From UHGV virus genome UHGV-1380027: a stretch of DNA of 64,000 nucleotides. The stretch is one strand, 5' to 3'. A program made the translations under genes and the position numbers. The notes beneath the pieces are model-generated. The model made no database searches. It was given only the letters and a program-made list of their open reading frames with translations, and was not told where the DNA came from. The stretch's first letter is position 1. Every line of letters starts with the position of its first letter. This DNA is from a virus. This document shows, in pieces, positions 36,915 through 59,716 of the stretch.

Positions 36915-37388
36915 TTAGATAATACCTGCAAGACCTGCGAGGCCAGTGAGAGCACCAGTGATGTTGTCACGGTTGAGCCATGCATCCAGAATACCGATAT
37001 CCCAGTCCAGCTGACCTACTTCGGTTCCGTAAGTAAGGTCAGGCTGTTTCTGGATCCAACCGATTGTAGCAATACCGGGGCCCTGGCTACCTTCCAGCAG
37101 AACCGGGAAGAATACAAGACCAGTAATAGATGCCTGTTTCTGCCAGTCAGAAAGGTAGGCGTTCCATACAGAAGTGTTCTGCAAAGACACAGTCATAACA
37201 CCAGATTGGTTACGAGACAGGGCTGCAGACATTTCGCCATCCACACCAACATGAGGGTAGATGTTGTCTTCGTTTCTTGAAACAACGATCTTGGTGTCAG
37301 CAGCGAAGCCAGTGACACGCTGCTGCATCAGGTACAGTTTGACCTTTTTAGGGTCATAAGCATAAGGAGTTAAAATTTGAGTTTCCAT
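36915..37388 (-). CDS. tail tube-like protein
   Basis: 157 aa between the large tail protein and the chaperones, matching sheath-tube-chaperone-tape measure order; followed by a terminator. Confidence 0.45.
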   Translation of the reverse strand: METQILTPYAYDPKKVKLYLMQQRVTGFAADTKIVVSRNEDNIYPHVGVDGEMSAALSRNQSGVMTVSLQNTSVWNAYLSDWQKQASITGLVFFPVLLEGSQGPGIATIGWIQKQPDLTYGTEVGQLDWDIGILDAWLNRDNITGALTGLAGLAGII

Positions 37389-44899: not shown

Positions 44900-46456
44900 T
44901 TAATTTTCCATGTTGGATATGGAATTATCTCTGGTTGATGACATCTTAGAAGTGCCGTTGCCAGTGGATCCTGCAGCCATTCCATCGCCAGCCCTACTGA
45001 TGTCCTGGCCCAAGAGCTTCATTAGCTCTTCCTGATCCATGTCCTCGTCAAATCTTTCATCAAACCCACCTACTTCAAGAATCTTATTAATTACTGCAGG
45101 AGTTTTTGGCAAGTAACCTACAGCACCGATCCTCTGGACAAACTTGGAGAAGCTCTCCATGTCCACCTCTTCAATCAGGCCAGGTTTCAGTTTAGGCATA
45201 TCATCATCTTCAAGGATGATACCATTCAATGCCAGAAGCTGTGGAATAAGATCTTTATTGAAGGCCTCAGTGATAATATCTATATCACGCTGAACAAAAT
45301 GACCATGGATAGACTGTTTTGACTCAGACAGAGAGAAGGATCCAACGTTATCGTTACCGAGGTTAATAAAGCCAGCACCGAAACGGTCAAGAATCGCCTT
45401 CTTACGGGCATCAATCAAATCTTTAGTGGAATACTGCTTACCCATACCGTCAACCCCCTTCAGGGTCATGGAGTAAAGCTCTTTACCAGACTTATCTCTA
45501 TCAGACGGAAGTATAAAGAAACTTTGCTCCCCACTATGGGCGTTTGCTGCGTCCAACATAAGATCTGCAACCATTCTCCCTTCCATCGAATTCGGGTCAA
45601 TGCTGGCCTTGTTCAAAATATTGGAAGGAATTTTCAGCTCAAGCACACCACCAAGGTCTTTGGAGCAGCCAACAACCTCAAGGTTTTCAATCAAAACTTT
45701 CTCACGGAAAGATCTGTAGCAACCTATCATCGGTGACACACCTGCAGGATTAGATTCTGTTCCTGACAGAGTCATGAGCATAAGCTTTTTAGCAGGGATG
45801 AAAATTTCAGGCTCATTAAAGCCTTTTGAAGGCATTGCAGCGAGAGGTCCAGCCCAGCGTGCATTCTGAGTGTTTAGAAATGCATTAGGTGACTGATAAA
45901 TACCTGTCAGTGTTCTGCTATTCTTGTCAAAGACAAACGGCTCTGATCTGGACAAACTGGCCTGTGGTCGGAATGCAATTTTATCAATAAGAAGCATCCC
46001 GGCATATTTACCTTCTTTCTCTCTGCGGTATACTTTCTCAAACAGTGAAAAACCATACTCGTTAAAGGTAGCTGCGCTTCTTGCAATATCTCGAAGAGTT
46101 TGTTGGTTTGCCAAATTACGCAAAGAATACTCTATAAGCTCGGCGGCTTTCTTAGAGTCTTCACTTTTAACATTATAAAGGATCTTAAAATCATTGAATG
46201 CTTTCGTGATGAAAACATATTTTGTATCTAAGGCAGTAGCAACTGTGGAATCACATTTCATAGTCTCCACTGTGGCAATCAGCTGAGGCCAACGCAATTC
46301 CTCAACCATCATAGATTGTGATTCTGCCATAATTTGGGAAAGTGCGCCAGAACCGATCTCACTCATACGAACATTATGAGTTGGTGCGCCTGCGTTCCCA
46401 GATTTATTCACAGTTTTGGCTGTGGCGTTGTGTTTCCTGCGGTTCTTTTTGGACAC
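44900..46456 (-). CDS. portal protein
   Basis: 518 aa immediately downstream of the large terminase gene; size and position typical. Confidence 0.65.
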   Translation of the reverse strand: MSKKNRRKHNATAKTVNKSGNAGAPTHNVRMSEIGSGALSQIMAESQSMMVEELRWPQLIATVETMKCDSTVATALDTKYVFITKAFNDFKILYNVKSEDSKKAAELIEYSLRNLANQQTLRDIARSAATFNEYGFSLFEKVYRREKEGKYAGMLLIDKIAFRPQASLSRSEPFVFDKNSRTLTGIYQSPNAFLNTQNARWAGPLAAMPSKGFNEPEIFIPAKKLMLMTLSGTESNPAGVSPMIGCYRSFREKVLIENLEVVGCSKDLGGVLELKIPSNILNKASIDPNSMEGRMVADLMLDAANAHSGEQSFFILPSDRDKSGKELYSMTLKGVDGMGKQYSTKDLIDARKKAILDRFGAGFINLGNDNVGSFSLSESKQSIHGHFVQRDIDIITEAFNKDLIPQLLALNGIILEDDDMPKLKPGLIEEVDMESFSKFVQRIGAVGYLPKTPAVINKILEVGGFDERFDEDMDQEELMKLLGQDISRAGDGMAAGSTGNGTSKMSSTRDNSISNMEN

Positions 46457-46470
46457 AAGCTTTACCCCTC

Positions 46471-46507
46471 AAAACAGTATAACAAAATAGCCCTCGTGTT
46501 AGAGGGC
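46471..46507 (-). terminator. hairpin/attenuator between terminase and portal
   Basis: minus-strand hairpin GCCCTC-TAACAC-GAGGGC followed by a T-rich stretch (TATTTTGTTATACTGTTTT). Confidence 0.4.
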
Positions 46508-46558
46508 CAGTATCTCCGATTACTCTATTCTACCACATCTAATTAAGATTGGCAACAC

Positions 46559-48106
46559 TTAGATAAAACGCTTGAACATAGAAGGTGATGAGATTGATGG
46601 AATCACACAAGGCAGCGCTACCTCCTCTTTCTCCAGGAAATTAATCGCAGAAGCTACACAGTCGGCCCAGTCGTCTTTTCTGTTAAATGTTGATCTTTCC
46701 CCGTTGAACTTTTCAAGTTCAGTTAGAAATGCTTCCAGAGTGTCAGGATGGAAACTGGATTTTACAATCCTCACCATTCCTTGTTGGGCAAGATTGGCAA
46801 AGGGTGAGAACCTTGTCAGTTTAGATTTGTTGGAAGGCATTGGATCTTCTTCAACCCTGAACCCTTCGGCGAGCAAGGATCTGGACGAGGTTAAGAACTC
46901 ACTCTTACCTGCCTGACCGGGGTCCACAGAAAATACGATTATGCAATCATCTCCATCAAACTGCGCCTGTTTCCTGATGATCACATCTCGTTCCCCAGCC
47001 TTTTTACAGAACTTTCCTTCCAGACCTGTGGAATACCTACCGTCATCCACGTTCTCAGGACAATAATCCCCGGACAGGTAATAAAAGCCGTCGCTATCTT
47101 TACTTACCTTAACACTGGCGGTAAAGTCAGGAAATTTATTACCGGAAGTTCTCTCGGTTCCTGCTTTATCCCATGCCCTGCAAGATACTGATCCAAGAGG
47201 TACTCTATCGGCATCACGAAGGAAAGATCTTTGGAAATAGTTTGCACCCTCAGGTTTGGCAAACCAGTTGCCATGAAGAAGCTGGGCTTTTTCAAGCTCG
47301 GGTAGACCTTCAAGGAAAGCAAGGTATTCCGGGTTGTCTCTCAAACAGACAGGATTATCGAAAATTGTTGCGCCTATAAACGAGAATGACAACGGTCTTG
47401 GCTTGATCTCCACACCCAGTCCGTTAACCGTGGTGTATTTCTCTATTAACTCTTCTTTAGAGTCTCCCCAAATAAATTCACCGTCGCGTCGGATAAAATA
47501 TCTTTTCTTACCACATTTCTCCGGATCTGGATACCCTTCATCGTCCAACCACCACCTAACCAGTTTGGCAAGCATGTGTTCTGAGTCGGGGTTACAGCTG
47601 ATAACCATTCTTGATGGATACTTTGACTGAGATCGCAGACGAGACATCAAATAGTCTATCTGCTCCCATTCGAATTGCGTGCCTTCATCGAAGCAAACCA
47701 TGGTGTACTCAAGGCCTTGATGGTTAAGCTTATCTTGGACATACTCCATGTGGCAGTATTTTACAACGGCCCCCTTTTTGCTCCTGTCCCACTTGCCAGT
47801 GCTCGGATCAAACCGTGGAAAAATAAACTTATGATCCTTCTCTCTGAACTTTGGTTTAATGTTTTCAGGCAGATCACTGTAGATAGCTACTGCTTTAGGC
47901 CATAGCCCACCCTCACCTTCCAACTGGGGAGTTGTTCTTCGGAACATAACCACAGAGCTGTGCGGGTCATCAATAATTTTAAGCGGCATTAGCTGCAAGA
48001 GGAACGACTTGCCAGACCCAGCTGCACCTCCGATCACCAAAATATCTGCATCGTTCTCTAGGATCATCTTCTGCTTTTCAGAACACGGTCCGTAAATCTT
48101 AGACAT
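46559..48106 (-). CDS. terminase large subunit
   Basis: 515 aa; Walker A motif GGAAGSGKS near the N-terminus; position ahead of portal. Confidence 0.85.
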   Translation of the reverse strand: MSKIYGPCSEKQKMILENDADILVIGGAAGSGKSFLLQLMPLKIIDDPHSSVVMFRRTTPQLEGEGGLWPKAVAIYSDLPENIKPKFREKDHKFIFPRFDPSTGKWDRSKKGAVVKYCHMEYVQDKLNHQGLEYTMVCFDEGTQFEWEQIDYLMSRLRSQSKYPSRMVISCNPDSEHMLAKLVRWWLDDEGYPDPEKCGKKRYFIRRDGEFIWGDSKEELIEKYTTVNGLGVEIKPRPLSFSFIGATIFDNPVCLRDNPEYLAFLEGLPELEKAQLLHGNWFAKPEGANYFQRSFLRDADRVPLGSVSCRAWDKAGTERTSGNKFPDFTASVKVSKDSDGFYYLSGDYCPENVDDGRYSTGLEGKFCKKAGERDVIIRKQAQFDGDDCIIVFSVDPGQAGKSEFLTSSRSLLAEGFRVEEDPMPSNKSKLTRFSPFANLAQQGMVRIVKSSFHPDTLEAFLTELEKFNGERSTFNRKDDWADCVASAINFLEKEEVALPCVIPSISSPSMFKRFI

Positions 48107-48393
48107 TAACCTCTCTCCTTTGGAAACAGTGTTCTTATATAGTCTTGCAAAATGATCAATTTAGCTCTATCATTACTACAAGACAGGTTATTATCCCTCA
48201 TAATGCCAGAATTCACCGCATCTGGCGCACCTTTCTTCAAAGGGATAGCCTTAGCAGGAGGCTTCATAGCACCCTCGGGAGGTTTAACAATCAACCTTCC
48301 TACATCCGGAGGGTCAATCCTGTATTCTCTCTCAACGCTGGTTGCACACCCACACAATAACAAGCACAAAACAACCAGTGCAGTAACTCTCAT
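48106..48393 (-). CDS. outer-membrane spanin-like lipoprotein (Rz1-like)
   Basis: 95 aa; signal peptide with lipobox-like LLLCGC; Pro-rich mature region (DPPD, KPP, KPPAKAIP); start overlaps the stop of the upstream membrane coiled-coil gene. Confidence 0.55.
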   Translation of the reverse strand: MRVTALVVLCLLLCGCATSVEREYRIDPPDVGRLIVKPPEGAMKPPAKAIPLKKGAPDAVNSGIMRDNNLSCSNDRAKLIILQDYIRTLFPKERG

Positions 48394-48788
48394 TGAACCT
48401 CCTGATTGATACTCTCATTATAAATATCTATTAGCTGATCAGGAAGTGTTGACTTCTTACCTTCAGGTGATTGGAGGTAGATAATCTGCTTTTCTTTACC
48501 TGCCTTCTCAGCCATATTTAATTTATCCTGTAGATCAGAAAGAGATTTTTCAAGGTTTTTAACCTCCTCTGCGTGGCCCATTTTAATTTTGTCGGCCTGC
48601 TTTTGTTGTTGGTCAAGGATCCGTTCCCACTTTAACTCTGTTGCTGACACACCTTCCTGATAAGCATCATTGAGCTTAGAGTTAAACCAATACACGGCAC
48701 CAAGATAAGCCATACCTATAGCCGCTGCAAAAACTAAACCTTTTATGATCCCTCTGTATTTACTCATCAATGTTAAAACTGAAATCAT
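48390..48788 (-). CDS. inner-membrane spanin-like protein (Rz-like)
   Basis: 132 aa; N-terminal transmembrane helix (GLVFAAAIGMAYLGAVYWF) then charged coiled-coil region; overlaps the downstream lipoprotein gene. Confidence 0.55.
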   Translation of the reverse strand: MISVLTLMSKYRGIIKGLVFAAAIGMAYLGAVYWFNSKLNDAYQEGVSATELKWERILDQQQKQADKIKMGHAEEVKNLEKSLSDLQDKLNMAEKAGKEKQIIYLQSPEGKKSTLPDQLIDIYNESINQEVQ

Positions 48789-48802
48789 TTTAAGGCTCCA
48801 GA

Positions 48803-48840
48803 AACGAAAAAACCCCGCAGCTATACAGCTAACGGGGCGG
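48803..48840 (-). terminator. hairpin with T-run (terminator/attenuator)
   Basis: minus-strand CCCCG...CGGGG hairpin with internal AGCT palindrome followed by TTTTTTCGTTTC. Confidence 0.4.
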
Positions 48841-48893
48841 GTTAAAATTGAGTAACCTAAATAGATCGAAACTAACTAAAAGGAGACTAATAC

Positions 48894-49163
48894 TTATCGA
48901 GGCACTCGGTGGATGATTCTGACAGTAACCGCATTCTCATTCATCAAGTAAGCATCCACATCTCTGTAAATATAAAACTTCTGCTCGCTATCAACAACAC
49001 AAGCTACTGCCCCTTCAGAGTTGTCTTCAAAGAAGACCACAACTGCATCGCAGCTTAGTTCATGATACGACTCTCGAAGATTTACAGCAAGAGGGTTGAA
49101 ATCTTCACGAAGATCTAAAGTATGGGTTGGATTTACACGTTCTACAATTTTAAGTGTATACAT
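48894..49163 (-). CDS. hypothetical protein (possible small terminase by synteny only)
   Basis: 89 aa, first protein gene downstream of the tRNA cluster; RBS AAGGAA; no motif recognised. Confidence 0.3.
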   Translation of the reverse strand: MYTLKIVERVNPTHTLDLREDFNPLAVNLRESYHELSCDAVVVFFEDNSEGAVACVVDSEQKFYIYRDVDAYLMNENAVTVRIIHRVPR

Positions 49164-49209
49164 TTTAAAGGTTCCTTTTGTGTGTATATATTTAAAGTAT
49201 AACTAAAGG

Positions 49210-49286
49210 TGGTCTCCACGGAGTGATTCGAACACTCGACCTCCTGATCCCAAATCAGGCGCTCTACCAAGCTGAGCTACGCGGAG
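49210..49286 (-). tRNA. tRNA-Pro (anticodon TGG)
   Basis: Hand-folded cloverleaf: acceptor CTCCGCG/CGTGGAG (one G-U), T arm GAGTG-TTCGAAT-CACTC, anticodon loop TTTGGGA, encoded CCA. Confidence 0.7.
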
Positions 49287-49297
49287 TATTTATTATT

Positions 49298-49372
49298 TGG
49301 TGGCCCTGGGTGGAATTGAACCACCGTCTGGCGATTATGAGTCGCTTGCTTGAACCTTCCAGCTACAGGGCC
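49298..49372 (-). tRNA. tRNA-Met or Ile2 (anticodon CAT)
   Basis: Acceptor GGCCCTG/CAGGGCC, T arm GGTGG-TTCAATT-CCACC, anticodon loop CTCATAA, encoded CCA; CAT cannot distinguish Met from lysidine-modified Ile. Confidence 0.65.
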
Positions 49373-49373
49373 A

Positions 49374-49449
49374 TGGTGCTGATGGCAGGACTTGAACCTG
49401 CAACCTATTGATTACAAATCAATTGCACTGCCAATTGTGCTACATCAGC
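49374..49449 (-). tRNA. tRNA-Thr (anticodon TGT)
   Basis: Acceptor GCTGATG/CATCAGC, D stem GCAC/GTGC, anticodon stem ATTGA/TCAAT with loop TTTGTAA, T arm GCAGG-TTCAAGT-CCTGC, encoded CCA; 1-nt spacer from the previous tRNA. Confidence 0.75.
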
Positions 49450-49453
49450 AAAA

Positions 49454-49552
49454 GGTGCTAGGTGATGGAATCGAACCATCTATGTATTCAACGACTACCT
49501 CGTCTATTTTCAGGATTAAAAATCCTCGCCCTTGCCAAAGGGCTTACCTAGC
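49454..49552 (-). tRNA. atypical tRNA-like gene (about 99 nt; anticodon loop TTTTTAA, possibly TTT)
   Basis: Perfect 7-bp acceptor GCTAGGT/ACCTAGC, D arm GCCC-TTTGGCAA-GGGC, T arm GATGG-TTCGATT-CCATC, but about 31 nt between anticodon stem and T arm; no encoded CCA. Confidence 0.35.
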
Positions 49553-49650
49553 TCAGTATGTTGACCATGTTGCTAGTCGGCGATGACGACTGTAACATTT
49601 GATAATCCGGTTCTGCTTCCGGCTTTCGCTTAATTACAAGGTCAACAATA

Positions 49651-49741
49651 TGGCAGAGGATAATGGAATCGAACCATCATCGAGTCATCCTCAACGGGAC
49701 GGTTTTCAAGACCGCTTGAGCACCATTGCTCCCTACCCTCT
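49651..49741 (-). tRNA. tRNA-Ser (anticodon TGA)
   Basis: Acceptor AGAGGGT/ATCCTCT (one G-U), anticodon arm GCGGT-CTTGAAA-ACCGT as in bacterial tRNA-Ser, long variable arm, T loop TTCGATT, discriminator G, encoded CCA. Confidence 0.6.
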
Positions 49742-49855
49742 TTTATAAACAATACTGATAATGACACTGATTTTCGAGCAGTTAGTGACTAGTATAAACG
49801 ACGATAAATATCAATGCCATTATCTGTATGATTTATGCATTTAAAAATATAAATT

Positions 49856-49943
49856 TGGTGGTGAGTGATGGAGTCGAACCACCCGAATCGCAATGATAAC
49901 AGATTTACAGTCTGCCCCGCTACCCCTACGGAATTAACTCACC
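49856..49943 (-). tRNA. tRNA-Tyr (anticodon GTA)
   Basis: Acceptor GGTGAGT/ACTCACC, anticodon arm GCAGA-CTGTAAA-TCTGT, long variable arm, T arm GGTGG-TTCGACT-CCATC, encoded CCA. Confidence 0.7.
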
Positions 49944-50073
49944 TAAATACTAATATTTAAATTCTTTTTAAAATAGCTAGTGTTCTAACCACTAACTATG
50001 AGGTATCGGTAAAGTGGTTACCGCCACTTGCCGAAGATTTACTCTGCTAAAGTAAGCTACATTAAAAAGAACT

Positions 50074-50148
50074 TGGCACCCCGTACTGGACTCGAACCAG
50101 TGTCAACGGCTTAGAAGGCCGCTGCTTTATCCACTAAGCTAACAGGGC
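50074..50148 (-). tRNA. tRNA-Arg (anticodon TCT)
   Basis: Acceptor GCCCTGT/ACGGGGT (two G-U), D stem GCTT/AAGC, anticodon arm GCGGC-CTTCTAA-GCCGT, T arm ACTGG-TTCGAGT-CCAGT, encoded CCA. Confidence 0.65.
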
Positions 50149-50206: not shown

Positions 50207-50235
50207 ATATTACACTGTTAGGCAAAGTTTGTCAA
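50207..50235 (-). promoter_or_regulatory. sigma70-like promoter for the tRNA cluster
   Basis: On the minus strand TTGACA, 17-bp spacer, TAATAT; lies about 50 nt upstream of the first tRNA 5' end. Confidence 0.5.
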
Positions 50236-54148: not shown

Positions 54149-55093
54149 ATGGACAAAATGACAAATGAGGAATGTATGATGAAGTATTTTAATGCAGACG
54201 ACCTGGTTGACAAAGGTCTTGTAACCAGTCGGTATTATCCAGATCTTGGATTAAAGATCTACAAATACGCCAGAAAAGTATTCTACAACAACTTATGGCA
54301 CTTATCTCCGCGTTTACTTGAGTGCCGAGGCATTGTTGTTGGTAATGAAGGGAATGTTGTGGCATGGCCCTTCACAAAAGTATTTAATTTGGGAGAAAAC
54401 TCCACCAACCTGCCTGACAATAAGCTTGTGACGGCGGTAGAGAAAAAGAACGGATTCCTTGGTGTGGTATCATCTCATAAAGGTGAGCTATTGTTCTCAA
54501 CAACCGGGTCTCTTGATTCTCCATACTGTAACCTCGCAAAGGAAACAATCCAGGAGCAATGTGGTAATTTAGATCTCATCAAAAAGGTTATGGGCCATGA
54601 AAACATGACATTCATGTTTGAAATTTGTCACCCTTCAGATCCGCATATTGTTCAGGAAGACCATGGCGCATATTTGATAGGTTGCAGATATAATGATTCT
54701 GGAATAATGCTACCAGAAGCAGCTTTAGATGGGATTGCCAAATACCTTGGTGCAAAACGTCCTCACACTGTGCGTGAAATTCCGTTCAGCTATGCAAAAG
54801 AATTAGCTGCAGAAACAAGAGGTGAAGGGTATATGATTCGTAAGCCTTACTACCCTTATGATCTGCAGCTGAAGATCAAGTCTCCATACTATTTGGCACG
54901 GAAGGCCGTAATGAGGGGTAAAGCTTGGAAGATTTGGGATGATGATATCTTTAAACGTATTGACGAAGAGTTTTACGGCATGGTAAACTTCATTCGTAAC
55001 AATTACACAGAAGATGTGTGGAACTGCCTCCTAGAGCAGGAACGCCGTGAGATACTTGACTGCTATTTCCACAACGAGGACTATATGCAATGA
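54149..55093 (+). CDS. RNA ligase-like nucleotidyltransferase
   Basis: 314 aa; candidate ligase motif I in VEKKNGFLGVV (KxNG); true start probably ATG at 54176 or 54179 after RBS GAGGA; divergent from the kinase/phosphoesterase genes. Confidence 0.4.
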   Translation: MDKMTNEECMMKYFNADDLVDKGLVTSRYYPDLGLKIYKYARKVFYNNLWHLSPRLLECRGIVVGNEGNVVAWPFTKVFNLGENSTNLPDNKLVTAVEKKNGFLGVVSSHKGELLFSTTGSLDSPYCNLAKETIQEQCGNLDLIKKVMGHENMTFMFEICHPSDPHIVQEDHGAYLIGCRYNDSGIMLPEAALDGIAKYLGAKRPHTVREIPFSYAKELAAETRGEGYMIRKPYYPYDLQLKIKSPYYLARKAVMRGKAWKIWDDDIFKRIDEEFYGMVNFIRNNYTEDVWNCLLEQERREILDCYFHNEDYMQ

Positions 55094-57567: not shown

Positions 57568-58850
57568 TGCATCAGATCAAAACAACACTGTACGCACTGA
57601 ACAAAGATGGCAGCTACCAACAGTGGAAAGTATTCACGGATGGTGATAAGGTTATCGTAGAGTTTGGCAAGCTTGATGGTAAACTGCAATACAAAGAGAC
57701 GATCTGTACACCTAAGAACGTGGGCCGTGCCAATGAAACTACAGCTGAGCAACAGGCTGAGCTGGAAGCGATCAGTAAGTGGGAAAAACAAGTCCGTCTG
57801 GGGTATGTTGAAAATATGGAAGATTGCGAGCAGGGGGTTGACCTTTTACCCATGCTGGTGCATGACTACCTGAAGCGTGGAAAGGCACTTAAATTACCTT
57901 GCTGGATCTTGCGTAAGTTAGATGGCCTTCGTCTACTGGTTGTTTTCCAAAACGGTGAGCCTAAATTTATTTCCCGTGGTAATAAGTCCTACCCTATTCA
58001 AGGAAAGCTTCTGGAGCAACTTCGTTCTTTCCACTTCACCACCGGGATTAAACAGCTCGACGGAGAGATCTATATTCATGGTCTGCCTCTGCAGAAAATA
58101 GTGTCTCTTGCTAAACGTTGGCGCACACAGGAAGAGATTCAGGCCGAGATCGATAAAGACTACGAGGCAGATAAAAAACGCCGTCATGCCGCAATTAAGG
58201 CAGGCTTATCAACATACAAAAACTTCAATAAGGTAGATATTCCTGTTGATGTTGAGCCTGTTCGTGATGATTTGCGTTACGGAGGGTACTGTAGCTATGA
58301 CTTAGAGTATCATATTTTCGACATCCCTAGTGACAAGGTATGGTGGGATCCGGAAACAGAATCTGGACGATGCAAGGATCTTATGGATGCAGAAGATACC
58401 ATTACCACTCTGATGCTTGACCATATCAAGGTTGTTGACGCAGAGCTTGCGTACACAGTTGATCATTGCGAAGAATCTGTTGGTGTATTCATGTCCGAAG
58501 GATATGAAGGTACTATCATGCGTAACTTCTGTGGTAAATACGAATACGGTCAGCGAACATCTGAAGCATTGAAATGGAAAAAGTTCAACGATGCTGAGGT
58601 GAAAGTTATTGACGTTGAGAAAGATAAGAATGATGAAGGTGTTCTTATCTGTGTTGACAAGGAGGGTATCGTTGTTAAAATGAAGATGAAAGGTACGCAC
58701 GAGGAGCGTAGCTATGACAGGATGCAGGAAATGATCGGCAAGTTTGTCACCTTCAAATATCAAGCAAGGACAGAAGACAACAACTACCAATTCCCTGTCG
58801 GCATCTGCGTCCGAAATGTTAACCCGGACACTTGGGAGGTTCTGGAATGA
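57567..58850 (+). CDS. ATP-dependent DNA ligase
   Basis: 427 aa; motif I RKLDGLR (KxDG adenylation lysine) with downstream Gly-rich ligase-like blocks. Confidence 0.65.
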   Translation: MHQIKTTLYALNKDGSYQQWKVFTDGDKVIVEFGKLDGKLQYKETICTPKNVGRANETTAEQQAELEAISKWEKQVRLGYVENMEDCEQGVDLLPMLVHDYLKRGKALKLPCWILRKLDGLRLLVVFQNGEPKFISRGNKSYPIQGKLLEQLRSFHFTTGIKQLDGEIYIHGLPLQKIVSLAKRWRTQEEIQAEIDKDYEADKKRRHAAIKAGLSTYKNFNKVDIPVDVEPVRDDLRYGGYCSYDLEYHIFDIPSDKVWWDPETESGRCKDLMDAEDTITTLMLDHIKVVDAELAYTVDHCEESVGVFMSEGYEGTIMRNFCGKYEYGQRTSEALKWKKFNDAEVKVIDVEKDKNDEGVLICVDKEGIVVKMKMKGTHEERSYDRMQEMIGKFVTFKYQARTEDNNYQFPVGICVRNVNPDTWEVLE

Positions 58851-58975: not shown

Positions 58976-59446
58976 ATGAAACTTGATAAAAATGTTCAAC
59001 GAAAAGCTTTCTTGGATATGATCGCATATTCAGAAGGTACAGATAACGGTAGACAACCTACCAAGGATCGGGGCTATGATGTCATAGTCGGTGGCAAGCT
59101 GTTTAGCGATTACAGCAAGCATCCGGGTGTGTACGTTAAGCTAAATGCTAAACTTACCTCCTCTGCTGCGGGGCGCTACCAAGTTTTGGAGAAGTTTGCT
59201 AAACACTATATGAAACAGTTAGGATTACCAGATTTTGGCCCTGCCAGTCAGGATAAGATCGCACTACAATTGATCCGTGAGTGCAAGGCGCTCGATGATA
59301 TTGATGAAGGTCGTATTCATCAGGCCATCCATCTTTGCAGATCCCGATGGGCAAGCCTTCCTGGTGCAGGGTATGGTCAGCACGAACAGAAGATCGAAAA
59401 GTTGATCGAGGTGTTTAAAAAGTCAGGCGGTGTTGTCCTAGATTAA
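58976..59446 (+). CDS. endolysin, lambda R-type lytic transglycosylase
   Basis: 156 aa; near-colinear with lambda R as recalled: NVQRKAFLDMIAYSEGTDNGRQ, GYDVIVGG, AGRYQ, WASLPGAGYGQ; RBS GGAGAG. Confidence 0.85.
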   Translation: MKLDKNVQRKAFLDMIAYSEGTDNGRQPTKDRGYDVIVGGKLFSDYSKHPGVYVKLNAKLTSSAAGRYQVLEKFAKHYMKQLGLPDFGPASQDKIALQLIRECKALDDIDEGRIHQAIHLCRSRWASLPGAGYGQHEQKIEKLIEVFKKSGGVVLD

Positions 59447-59449
59447 TCA

Positions 59450-59478
59450 TTGACATGACCACATGGATGTGGTATTGT
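59450..59478 (+). promoter_or_regulatory. promoter candidate with embedded palindrome
   Basis: TTGACA (59450-59455), 17-bp spacer, TATTGT; spacer contains perfect inverted repeat ACCACAT-GG-ATGTGGT (59458-59473). Confidence 0.35.
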
Positions 59479-59509
59479 TACCCAGTAAAATGTTAAGGAG
59501 AGTTTAACC

Positions 59510-59716
59510 ATGAAAGATTTTCTGTTGGCAATTTTATTCATGGCAGCATGCTTTGCCTGTGGTGTCGTGTTTGCAGGTGAAACAGCGTATCTTGTAGATG
59601 TATATCGGGACAATGGTAAACGTATTTGCCTTTATGAAACAAGCCAAGGTGAGCTCTACGAGCTTGTGAAACAAGGCGAGGCTGGATCTTGTCCTCGGAC
59701 TCACTTCTTCGAATAA
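59510..59716 (+). CDS. small secreted/lipoprotein-like protein
   Basis: 68 aa; N-terminal hydrophobic segment with lipobox-like FMAAC; RBS AAGGAG; adjacent to endolysin; holin or o-spanin role not established. Confidence 0.35.
   Translation: MKDFLLAILFMAACFACGVVFAGETAYLVDVYRDNGKRICLYETSQGELYELVKQGEAGSCPRTHFFE

Follow-up and report, generated by a model that had tools for sequence, protein, structure and literature searches.

Spanins of rV5-like phages have been described before. Kongari 2018 (PMC6139136) includes rv5 spanin families in its Tables 3 and 4 and places the i- and o-spanins in the class of 'separated' architecture; the i-spanin group consists of rv5/2_JES-2013/FV3, and the rv5 o-spanin family (n=7) includes Av-05, 4MG, PVP-SE1 and GAP31. 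In CB7, rV5 and PVP-SE1 the spanin genes adjoin the gene of the large terminase and lie outside any lysis cassette (Buttimer 2020, PMC7344957). For LL12 the i-spanin is gp66, the o-spanin gp65 and the endolysin gp90 (PMC6658697). Comparisons used in the literature are with T4, in view of its separated spanin genes and dispersed lysis functions, and with SP6 and VP4 (PMC7344957). The assignments in these papers are bioinformatic, and no experimental test of the rV5-type spanin family was found in the literature. The rV5-like phages are a therapeutically used group. Dispersed lysis genes are textbook knowledge for T4 and T7.

The window analyzed here, a stretch of 64,000 nucleotides of the virus genome UHGV-1380027, shares 99.2% identity over 4 kb with the Vequintavirus NHEP1, an Escherichia phage, and by its sequence it is an rV5-like E. 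coli myophage of Vequintavirus. Four of its genes are central to what follows:

46559 to 48106, minus strand: large terminase (TerL), 515 aa, uninterrupted; matches to Terminase_6N/6C and phrog_979 (E 1.7e-208)
48106 to 48393, minus strand: predicted o-spanin gene, 95 aa; phrog_1267 match, lipobox, O-spanin annotation
48390 to 48788, minus strand: predicted i-spanin gene, 132 aa; phrog_4297 match, hydropathy, GenBank relatives
58976 to 59446, plus strand: endolysin, 156 aa; matches to 1AM7 and phrog_90; GH104 lytic transglycosylase of the lambda R type

The two genes at 48390-48788 and 48106-48393 very probably encode the two-component spanin of this phage. An earlier note on the same DNA had described them as a membrane protein and a Pro-rich lipoprotein with overlapping stop and start codons, immediately upstream of the large terminase, and each of these points was confirmed. 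The observations behind the spanin reading are the structure of the two genes, their topology signals, homology to known families, the conserved synteny and the type of endolysin. The pair does not consist of chance ORFs, since both proteins match PHROG families annotated 'Rz-like spanin' and orthologues occur in more than 190 phage records. Both small genes of NHEP1 are annotated 'Rz-like spanin', and many GenBank relatives label the pair I-spanin/O-spanin. The earlier note presented the arrangement as noteworthy. Because both the pair and its odd position had already been annotated in GenBank and published (PMC6139136, PMC7344957, PMC6658697), the pair and its location beside TerL, far from the endolysin, are correct but ordinary, and the finding adds little beyond correct annotation.

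The i-spanin gene comes first and has a ribosome binding site, GGAG, 7 nt upstream of its ATG. Its stop codon and the o-spanin start overlap by 4 nt (ATGA, in CAATGAGA), and the TAA of the o-spanin gene shares one base with the ATG of TerL (TAATG, in GGTTAATGTCT); both junctions have GGAGG or GGAGAGAGG in front. The genes count as 'separated', since the 4-nt overlap is shorter than an 8-bp case that Kongari (PMC6139136) still calls separated. Four genera of Vequintavirinae share the order i-spanin, o-spanin, TerL, portal.

The 132-aa protein matches phrog_4297 over its full length (E 1e-48). It has a single hydrophobic segment at residues 14-32 (mean Kyte-Doolittle value 1.94) that reaches F35, and no second TM segment. 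With K10, R12 and K16 on the N-terminal side of this segment, the protein is predicted to be a type II inner-membrane protein with N-in/C-out topology and one N-terminal TMD (about residues 14-35); the rV5 authors likewise obtained '1 TMD' for the orthologue, gene 67, with TMHMM/Phobius. An AF2 model, made from the single sequence and of moderate confidence (mean pLDDT 71.5, pTM 0.30, pLDDT below 50 at residues 106-112), has a helix at 5-99, a coil at 100-114 and a second helix at 115-131. The periplasmic part is mainly helical in this model, and a helix-linker-helix domain with the linker at 100-114 is predicted. The protein has no Cys. W34 and the C-terminal DIYNES motif are kept in four genera, and C-terminal motifs of the other partner are preserved across them as well.

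The 95-aa protein matches phrog_1267 with an E value of 8e-22. Its N-terminus reads MRVTALVVLCLLLCGC followed by ATS and contains the lipobox LCGC with Cys16; all elements of PROSITE PS51257 are present (rule applied by hand; R2), and the residue at +2 is Ala, not Asp. The protein is predicted to be a lipoprotein precursor that carries a signal for signal peptidase II and is destined for the outer membrane. The TM and lipobox calls for both proteins relied on simple rules for hydropathy and sequence patterns in place of SignalP or LipoP. The mature part comprises 80 aa, with a Pro-rich N-terminal half, and the protein has nine Pro in total (9.5%). L13, G15 and C16 (L-x-G-C) are invariant in Vequinta-, Seuna-, Mydo- and Avunavirus despite identities of 30-37%. 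Orthologues annotated O-spanin are found in 192 phage records; the protein of the window is 100% identical to the o-spanin of NHEP1 and 92.6% identical to that of FV3. Profile scans with Pfam and NCBIfam gave no model that matches either spanin protein; the informative databases for these proteins were PHROGs and PDB only.

The o-spanin has one periplasmic Cys, C72, which FV3 has too. In 507 of 528 spanin pairs, one or more periplasmic Cys are available for homotypic intermolecular disulfides (Summer 2007, Kongari 2018). Within the present family the residue is not conserved: Av-05 has C117 in the i-spanin instead, and the pairs of SSE121 and KNP2 have no periplasmic Cys at all, although spanin function is generally believed to require such a Cys.

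The start of the endolysin gene lies 10,188 nt from that of the i-spanin gene. The note's assignment of a lambda R-type enzyme some 10 kb away, in a plus-strand block, agrees with the match to lambda lysozyme (PDB 1AM7, E 3.2e-56, residues 4-154 aligned). The protein is 63% identical to lambda R; its AYSEGTDNGRQ aligns with AWSEGTDNGRQ, so that the catalytic Glu in the SEGT motif is retained. Against Pfam-A no family was found at E of at most 0.01, whereas the rV5 authors reported PF00959. Hydropathy over 19 residues reaches 0.42 at most, the protein begins with the polar stretch MKLDKNVQRK, and there is no membrane, signal or SAR segment. As a soluble, cytoplasmic enzyme the endolysin would be holin-dependent.

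A mechanism of lysis can be proposed on this basis. The N-terminal helix of the 132-aa i-spanin would anchor in the inner membrane, with its largely helical domain extending into the periplasm. The 95-aa o-spanin would be lipidated at Cys16 and, with Ala at +2, end up in the inner leaflet of the outer membrane, from which its extended, Pro-rich mature part could reach inward. The C-terminal regions of the two proteins would bind to each other, giving complexes that pass through the peptidoglycan meshes and bridge the periplasm. These complexes would be inactive until a holin allows the soluble transglycosylase (58976-59446) to destroy the wall, after which the freed complexes may cluster and collapse, causing fusion of inner and outer membrane and release of progeny. 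Complex formation, membrane fusion and the need for prior peptidoglycan degradation are inferred from lambda Rz/Rz1 and T4 PseT.3/PseT.2. Since intact peptidoglycan would restrain the spanins, their genes would need no co-regulation with those of holin and endolysin and could therefore sit elsewhere, here translationally linked to TerL.

Compared with the rv5 families of Kongari (PMC6139136), the proteins and the 'separated' class are the same and nothing of substance is different; the position beside TerL is that of rV5, PVP-SE1 and CB7 (PMC7344957). T4 resembles the present phage in that the i- and o-spanin genes, PseT.3/PseT.2, are separate, adjacent and unlinked from endolysin (e) and holin (t), and in having an i-spanin without Cys and a comparatively long o-spanin. 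However, PseT.2 carries two Cys that are conserved and essential and lacks a Pro-rich stretch, whereas the o-spanin found here has a single non-conserved Cys and is Pro-rich. Nor is the T4 spanin pair known to lie beside the terminase. Moreover, the proteins belong to another sequence family, and Kongari (PMC6139136) lists the T4 and rv5 families apart.

The earlier note had likened the arrangement to that of T7, and this holds only in part. The position is indeed similar: 18.5/18.7 lie between genes 18 and 19, the latter of which encodes the large terminase, and end 22 nt before gene 19. The lysis genes of T7 are scattered too, with lysozyme encoded by 3.5. The likeness does not extend to embedding, to the genes upstream or to sequence. 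T7 gene 18.7 (37032-37283) is wholly embedded in 18.5 (36917-37348), unlike the separated genes found here; gene 18 (small terminase) and gene 17.5 (holin) lie just upstream of the T7 pair, and the i-spanin has no detectable sequence similarity to gp18.5. With lambda the phage shares the functional model (S, R, Rz/Rz1) and a homologous endolysin. In lambda, S, R and Rz/Rz1 make up one contiguous cassette in which Rz1 is an embedded gene, while here the endolysin stands alone, with neither a lambda-type holin nor spanins beside it; the required homodimer disulfides of lambda are formed by the two Cys of Rz and the single Cys of Rz1.

That the lysis functions are dispersed, as the earlier note stated, was borne out: the endolysin is located in a divergent plus-strand block of DNA metabolism, and it and the spanins are on opposite strands and in separate units. 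The note also supposed these units to be differently timed, and on this point the elements around the spanin and TerL genes have to be considered:

46488 to 46555, minus strand: TerL-portal intergenic module, a late-like promoter (extended -10 TGTGGTAGAATA, -35 TTGCCA) followed by a hairpin with a T-run; P064 and t064ABC of rV5 Table S4
48807 to 48838, minus strand: terminator-like bulged hairpin, GCCCCGT-T-AGCT gtat AGCT-GCGGGGT plus T6 run
48894 to 49163, minus strand: ORF89 (rV5 gene 68), 89 aa, acidic, phrog_8729; last gene before the terminator
49210 to 50148, minus strand: tRNA genes (Pro, Met, Thr, one odd call, Ser, Arg) in an array that precedes spanin/TerL; also annotated in NHEP1
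50207 to 50235, minus strand: sigma-70-like promoter TTGACA-17-TAATAT before the tRNA array; 'PtRNA' of rV5 Table S4

ORF89 gave no Pfam or NCBIfam match and is not recognizable as a small terminase; T7 gp18 has the same length, but ORF89 shows no similarity to it.

According to one alternative, which we consider possible but rather doubtful, spanins and endolysin do not belong to differently timed classes. The spanin-TerL trio would be promoter-less and expressed by low-level terminator read-through from the tRNA promoter, the endolysin would be reached from plus-strand sigma-70-type promoters, and lysis timing would be set only by the holin. The hairpin (fold -16.9 kcal/mol) ends 18 nt before the i-spanin ATG and leaves no room for a promoter after it; it resembles an intrinsic terminator and would close the tRNA/ORF89 unit. 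A simple terminator scanner missed it because of the bulge. The 105-nt intergenic region that contains the hairpin is 100% identical in FV3 and NHEP1, while the o-spanin protein differs by 7%. On visual inspection no extended -10 or T4-late-like site was seen in 48838-48893. The 'late promoter' motif of rV5, TGGTAAAATA, has 15 matches with at most one mismatch in the window against 5.9 expected, several of them in intergenic gaps of the structural block, and none was found upstream of the spanins even though 13 of the 15 are on the same, minus strand. The nearest promoter-like site upstream on that strand is PtRNA (50235-50207), and a TTGACA-16-TAAAAT site with TG is present upstream of the endolysin, at 58654-58681. 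However, these promoter sites are consensus matches only, the rV5 authors class genes 27-66 as late, and there may be antitermination or an unrecognized promoter specific to the phage. Literature searches for transcriptomes of rV5-like phages gave no relevant result.

A comparison of genera bears on the same question. In Vequintavirus the terminator precedes the i-spanin gene and the o-spanin stop overlaps the TerL start, whereas in Seuna-, Mydo- and Avunavirus a terminator and a late-like motif separate TerL from the o-spanin gene, and a gene of 450-485 aa, split into 184 + 269 aa in SSE121, overlaps the i-spanin start. A homologue of this gene (phrog_16176) was not found in the window by tblastn (E at least 0.14). 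On a further reading, which seems unlikely, the transcription boundary would have moved in Vequintavirus, where the i-spanin/o-spanin/TerL module would depend entirely on transcripts from the tRNA promoter that pass a perfectly conserved hairpin. The sister genera would then differ in that their spanins end the upstream operon. The dose of spanin would be low, like that of a packaging enzyme, and tied to TerL via translational coupling.

Two further alternatives concern the identity of the pair. Exclusion is a function of some phage lipoproteins, Llp and Cor among them, and with this precedent the two proteins might be envelope proteins with a non-lysis role, such as superinfection exclusion or receptor masking, that are spanin-like in topology only. 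The missing late-like promoter motif and the non-conserved periplasmic Cys would be compatible with such a role. We nevertheless regard it as very improbable. The genes form a full spanin set, in which a type II helix-linker-helix protein is followed by a short Pro-rich outer-membrane lipoprotein; the C-terminal motifs of both partners are kept across four genera, the PHROG spanin-family matches are strong, and there is no other spanin candidate in the window, where a TM scan of all ORFs gave only the pair and a 68-aa ORF. It is hardly credible that one or both are packaging proteins of the TerS type, for which one could cite the slot upstream of TerL that is usual for a small terminase, the coupling through TAATG, a weak match, of coiled-coil type, between the 132-aa protein and the TerS family phrog_1206 (E 0.025) and the lack of a recognized small-terminase-like gene among the ORFs examined beside TerL, since the strongly hydrophobic N-terminal TMD of the 132-aa protein and the lipoprotein signal of the 95-aa protein put both outside the cytoplasm, Pfam and NCBIfam gave no DNA-binding domain match, and the coupling to TerL is not conserved in other genera because of the terminator and promoter-like motif between the o-spanin gene and TerL.

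The TM scan of the window was also a search for a holin. Apart from the spanin pair it yielded the 68-aa ORF alone, and no holin-like ORF was found near the spanins. In 2013 the rV5 authors proposed gp129, which is distant and lies outside the window. A small gene downstream of the endolysin was also considered:

59450 to 59478, plus strand: sigma-70-like promoter TTGACA-17-TGGTATTGT, extended -10; P090 of rV5 Table S4, directly after the endolysin stop and before the 68-aa ORF
59510 to 59716, plus strand: 68-aa ORF (rV5 gp90), phrog_4641, hydrophobic N-terminus

We did not adopt the 68-aa ORF as holin. Its PHROG has no assigned function, and its 122 near-identical copies are nearly all in Vequintavirus-like records, labeled 'hypothetical' or 'putative membrane protein'; a match of 35% identity occurs in a syntenic ligase-exonuclease block of Acinetobacter phage ABPH49, with no endolysin annotated there. 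The joint reading that the Vequintavirus i-spanin/o-spanin/TerL genes form a promoter-less, terminator-bracketed module and that rV5 gp90, not gp129, is the holin or antiholin is in our view unlikely.

The earlier note called the product of this ORF lipoprotein-like. This is fair in view of the strongly hydrophobic residues 4-22 (Kyte-Doolittle value 2.68) and Cys14/Cys17 but not secure, as the lipobox, MAAC with the Cys at 14, is borderline. Pfam-A and NCBIfam scans gave no usable match. With a C-terminal part of 45 aa that contains two Cys, the protein may be a borderline lipoprotein or else serve as a membrane anchor. Its gene adjoins that of the endolysin and has a sigma-70-like promoter of its own.

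The large terminase gene (TerL) of this phage is immediately preceded by two small genes, which together form a compact minus-strand cluster:

48390..48788, minus strand: i-spanin gene, 132 aa, with GGAG 7 nt 5' of the ATG
48106..48393, minus strand: o-spanin gene, 95 aa, N-terminus MRVTALVVLCLLLCGC followed directly by ATS
46559..48106, minus strand: TerL, 515 aa, Terminase_6N/6C, phrog_979 at E 1.7e-208, with the portal gene next

The i-spanin gene's stop codon and the start codon of the o-spanin gene overlap in ATGA, and the last A of the o-spanin TAA is the first base of the TerL ATG (TAATG). The GGAGG-type ribosome-binding sites of the o-spanin and TerL starts lie within the preceding gene. 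The i-spanin has a single hydrophobic segment (residues 14-32, mean Kyte-Doolittle 1.94) with K10, R12 and K16 ahead of it, and it contains no cysteine. When the PROSITE lipobox rule was applied by hand, all of its elements were found in the o-spanin, namely an Arg within residues 1-7, an uncharged stretch, L-C-G-C and Cys16; Ala at +2 points to sorting to the outer membrane by the established +2 rule. Nine prolines (9.5%) occur in the o-spanin, mostly in the first half of the mature chain. Both proteins match Rz-like spanin families, the i-spanin over its full length (phrog_4297, E 1e-48) and the o-spanin at E 8e-22 (phrog_1267), while no Pfam or NCBIfam model matched either of them. A single-sequence AlphaFold2 run on the i-spanin gave a helix (5-99), a low-confidence linker (100-114) and a second helix (115-131) at a mean pLDDT of 71.5, so that its predicted transmembrane segment plus helix-linker-helix would correspond to the layout described for i-spanins. 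The ORFs, topology signals and overlaps bear out the spanin pair with overlapping stop and start that the earlier note had placed before TerL.

The likeness to T7 claimed in that note holds in one respect. In the T7 record genes 18.5 and 18.7 are placed between genes 18 and 19, so the position before the large terminase is shared; T7, though, has 18.7 embedded within 18.5 and has its small terminase and holin 17.5 just upstream, and its gp18 and gp18.5 have no similarity to the ORFs found here. What the two phages share is position alone. In T4 and T7 it is usual for lysis genes to be dispersed, and the literature offers T4 as a parallel for separated genes and SP6 and VP4 for the terminase-adjacent position (PMC7344957).

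The phage itself belongs to a well-sampled group. Window positions 46000-50000 match 704 phage records, the close matches being E. coli myophages of about 136 kb and the top one Escherichia phage NHEP1 (99.2% identity across the full 4 kb). The four matching records that were checked are classified as Vequintavirinae, and NHEP1 and FV3 belong to the genus Vequintavirus, the rV5-like phages. NHEP1 is annotated with 'Rz-like spanin' for both genes and then 'terminase large subunit', and many other records label the pair I-spanin and O-spanin. Among the matches are also about 18-20 records titled 'Campylobacter phage' (MG0656xx, host C. jejuni), which share the E. coli Vequintavirus sequence with 91-95% protein identity and whose host labels look doubtful. 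TerL is one uninterrupted 515-aa ORF here; several BLAST matches to relatives come in two or three pieces, and introns or a homing endonuclease reportedly interrupt the gene in rV5 and LL12.

In the 2013 rV5 paper gene 66 (95 aa) was left unannotated and gene 67 (132 aa) was described as a membrane protein with one transmembrane domain. Since then, rv5 i-spanin and o-spanin families have been listed under the separated architecture (Kongari et al. 2018, PMC6139136), gp66 and gp65 of LL12 have been named i-spanin and o-spanin and its gp90 endolysin (PMC6658697), and the spanins of CB7, rV5 and PVP-SE1 have been reported to adjoin the large terminase (Buttimer et al. 2020, PMC7344957). Because of these publications, both the spanin pair and its terminase-adjacent site apart from the endolysin are already known.

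The gene map has a divergence point near 54150-54210. From there the minus-strand run carries a tRNA array, the spanins, TerL and the structural genes, and the plus-strand genes encode RNA ligase, a Sir2-like protein, DNA ligase, the endolysin, an exonuclease and polymerase subunits. This agrees with the units 27-81 and 82-163 proposed in the 2013 rV5 paper and confirms that spanins and endolysin lie in two separate, divergent units. The earlier note had also taken these units to be differently timed. Two sites flank the spanin-TerL cluster:

48807-48838, minus strand: bulged intrinsic-terminator-like hairpin with T6, -16.9 kcal/mol, with 18 nt between its end and the i-spanin ATG
46488-46555, minus strand: promoter-like site TTGCCA-17-TGTGGTAGAAT followed by a terminator-like hairpin, in the TerL-portal gap, equivalent to P064 and t064ABC of rV5

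The first hairpin does not appear in the terminator list of the rV5 authors. The whole 105-nt spacer before the i-spanin gene matches both FV3 and NHEP1 at 100% identity, although the FV3 o-spanin protein differs by 7%. Transcription from the promoter-like site of the second would give an RNA whose 5' leader includes the hairpin and U-run. The late-promoter-like motif of the rV5 authors, TGGTAAAATA, has 15 matches in the window against 5.9 expected, 13 of them on the minus strand and several within intergenic gaps of the structural block. The spanins have none ahead of them in the window; the closest one is found 3' of TerL, ahead of the portal gene. Going upstream along the spanin strand, the first promoter-like site is a sigma-70-type tRNA promoter (50235-50207). 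In the tRNA region, ARAGORN calls six genes (49210-50148, minus strand), including a 91-nt tRNA-Ser(tga) and one of 99 nt whose anticodon has four bases (49454-49552); five are annotated in NHEP1 (Pro, Met, Thr, Tyr, Arg), and Ser/Tyr are labelled otherwise in other relatives. The spanin-TerL trio thus appears to have no recognisable promoter of its own, and a late class for the spanins cannot be recognised from the sequence. Low-level expression by read-through is a tentative option, though at least as plausible as late-class expression. No transcriptome for any rV5-like phage turned up in the literature search.

The related genera differ on this point. In Seuna-, Mydo- and Avunavirus a gene of 450-485 aa (phrog_16176, split in two in SSE121), with a weakly nucleotidyltransferase-like N-terminus, overlaps the i-spanin start, and a conserved hairpin (GCCCTTAT...ATAAGGGC plus T-run) followed by TGGTAAA(A/C)T separates the o-spanin gene from TerL:

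L003:3744-3843, Seunavirus SSE121: hairpin and TGGTAAA(A/C)T
L004:3693-3781, Mydovirus KNP2: the same elements
L005:3696-3790, Avunavirus Av-05: the same elements

Given this gene overlap and the terminator 3' of the o-spanin gene, the spanins would end the upstream operon in these genera, whereas in Vequintavirus they appear to be fused to TerL behind a terminator, with the operon boundary on the opposite side.

Spanin orthologues with 30-37% identity occur in Seunavirus SSE121 and 4MG, Mydovirus KNP2 and Avunavirus Av-05, and the order i-spanin, o-spanin, TerL, portal is kept in the three genera together with the 4-nt spanin overlap. The lipobox L, G and C, a PP...AM...P core and the C-terminal region are invariant in the o-spanin, and W34 after the transmembrane segment and a C-terminal DIYNES motif are kept in the i-spanin. 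This pattern fits two envelope proteins with putatively interacting C-terminal parts. The periplasmic cysteine varies in position, being o-spanin C72 in Vequintavirus (window 48180-48182) and i-spanin C117 in Av-05 (L005:3004-3405), and in SSE121 and KNP2 neither partner has it. Kongari et al. regard such a cysteine as nearly universal in two-component spanins (PMC6139136); the SSE121 and KNP2 pairs fall among the roughly 4% of pairs that lack one.

The structure of the genes, their topology signals, their family, their conserved synteny and the type of endolysin were observed here, and the pair very probably acts as a functional spanin; no experiment on the rV5-type family was found in the literature. 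An exclusion-type envelope pair is improbable, since the full set of spanin features speaks otherwise. That the pair are packaging accessories occupying the 'small terminase slot' is scarcely credible, as the membrane and lipoprotein signals weigh against it. By analogy to lambda Rz/Rz1 and T4 PseT.3/PseT.2, and following the model summarised by Kongari et al. (PMC6139136), the i-spanin in the inner membrane and the lipoprotein in the outer membrane would join through their C-terminal regions into a complex that spans the periplasm, passing through the peptidoglycan. A holin would free the soluble endolysin, the wall would be degraded, and the complexes could then fuse the inner and outer membranes; complex formation, fusion and dependence on earlier wall degradation are all proposed by this analogy. 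Spanin timing may not matter, because intact peptidoglycan would hold the spanins inactive, and this would explain why their gene position is free to vary.

The endolysin unit contains two relevant ORFs:

58976..59446, plus strand: endolysin, aligned over its whole length to lambda lysozyme 1AM7 (E 3.2e-56), SEGT catalytic motif included
59510..59716, plus strand: 68-aa ORF (rV5 gp90) directly 3' of the endolysin, strongly hydrophobic N-terminus with Cys14 and Cys17

The alignment and the 10.2 kb between endolysin and i-spanin starts agree with the lambda R-type enzyme noted earlier about 10 kb from the spanins. With lambda R it shares 63% identity; it lacks a hydrophobic segment and has no Pfam-A match at E <= 0.01, although the PDB match is strong. 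The neighbouring ORF had been called lipoprotein-like; the label is defensible from its hydrophobic N-terminus with cysteines, but the PROSITE rule needs the cysteine at least one residue further on. Its predicted hydrophobic segment is long enough for a membrane anchor, its 45-aa tail has two further cysteines, and it has its own strong sigma-70-like promoter (TTGACA-17-TGGTATTGT, plus strand; promoter and ORF together span 59450-59716). It is the only membrane-type ORF in the window besides the spanins. It was not adopted as holin, being nearly restricted to Vequintavirus-like records and matching Acinetobacter phage ABPH49 (35% identical) in a syntenic block without an annotated endolysin (annotations only). 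The 2013 rV5 paper, with gp89 as lysin, proposed the distant gp129 as holin, and the LL12 announcement stated that the holin could not be identified (PMC6658697). Outside Vequintavirus, the endolysin comes closest, among the matches listed, to lysins from smaller Salmonella and lambdoid phages (63-69% identity), which suggests that the lambda R-type endolysin was gained alone, without a lambda-type holin or spanins.
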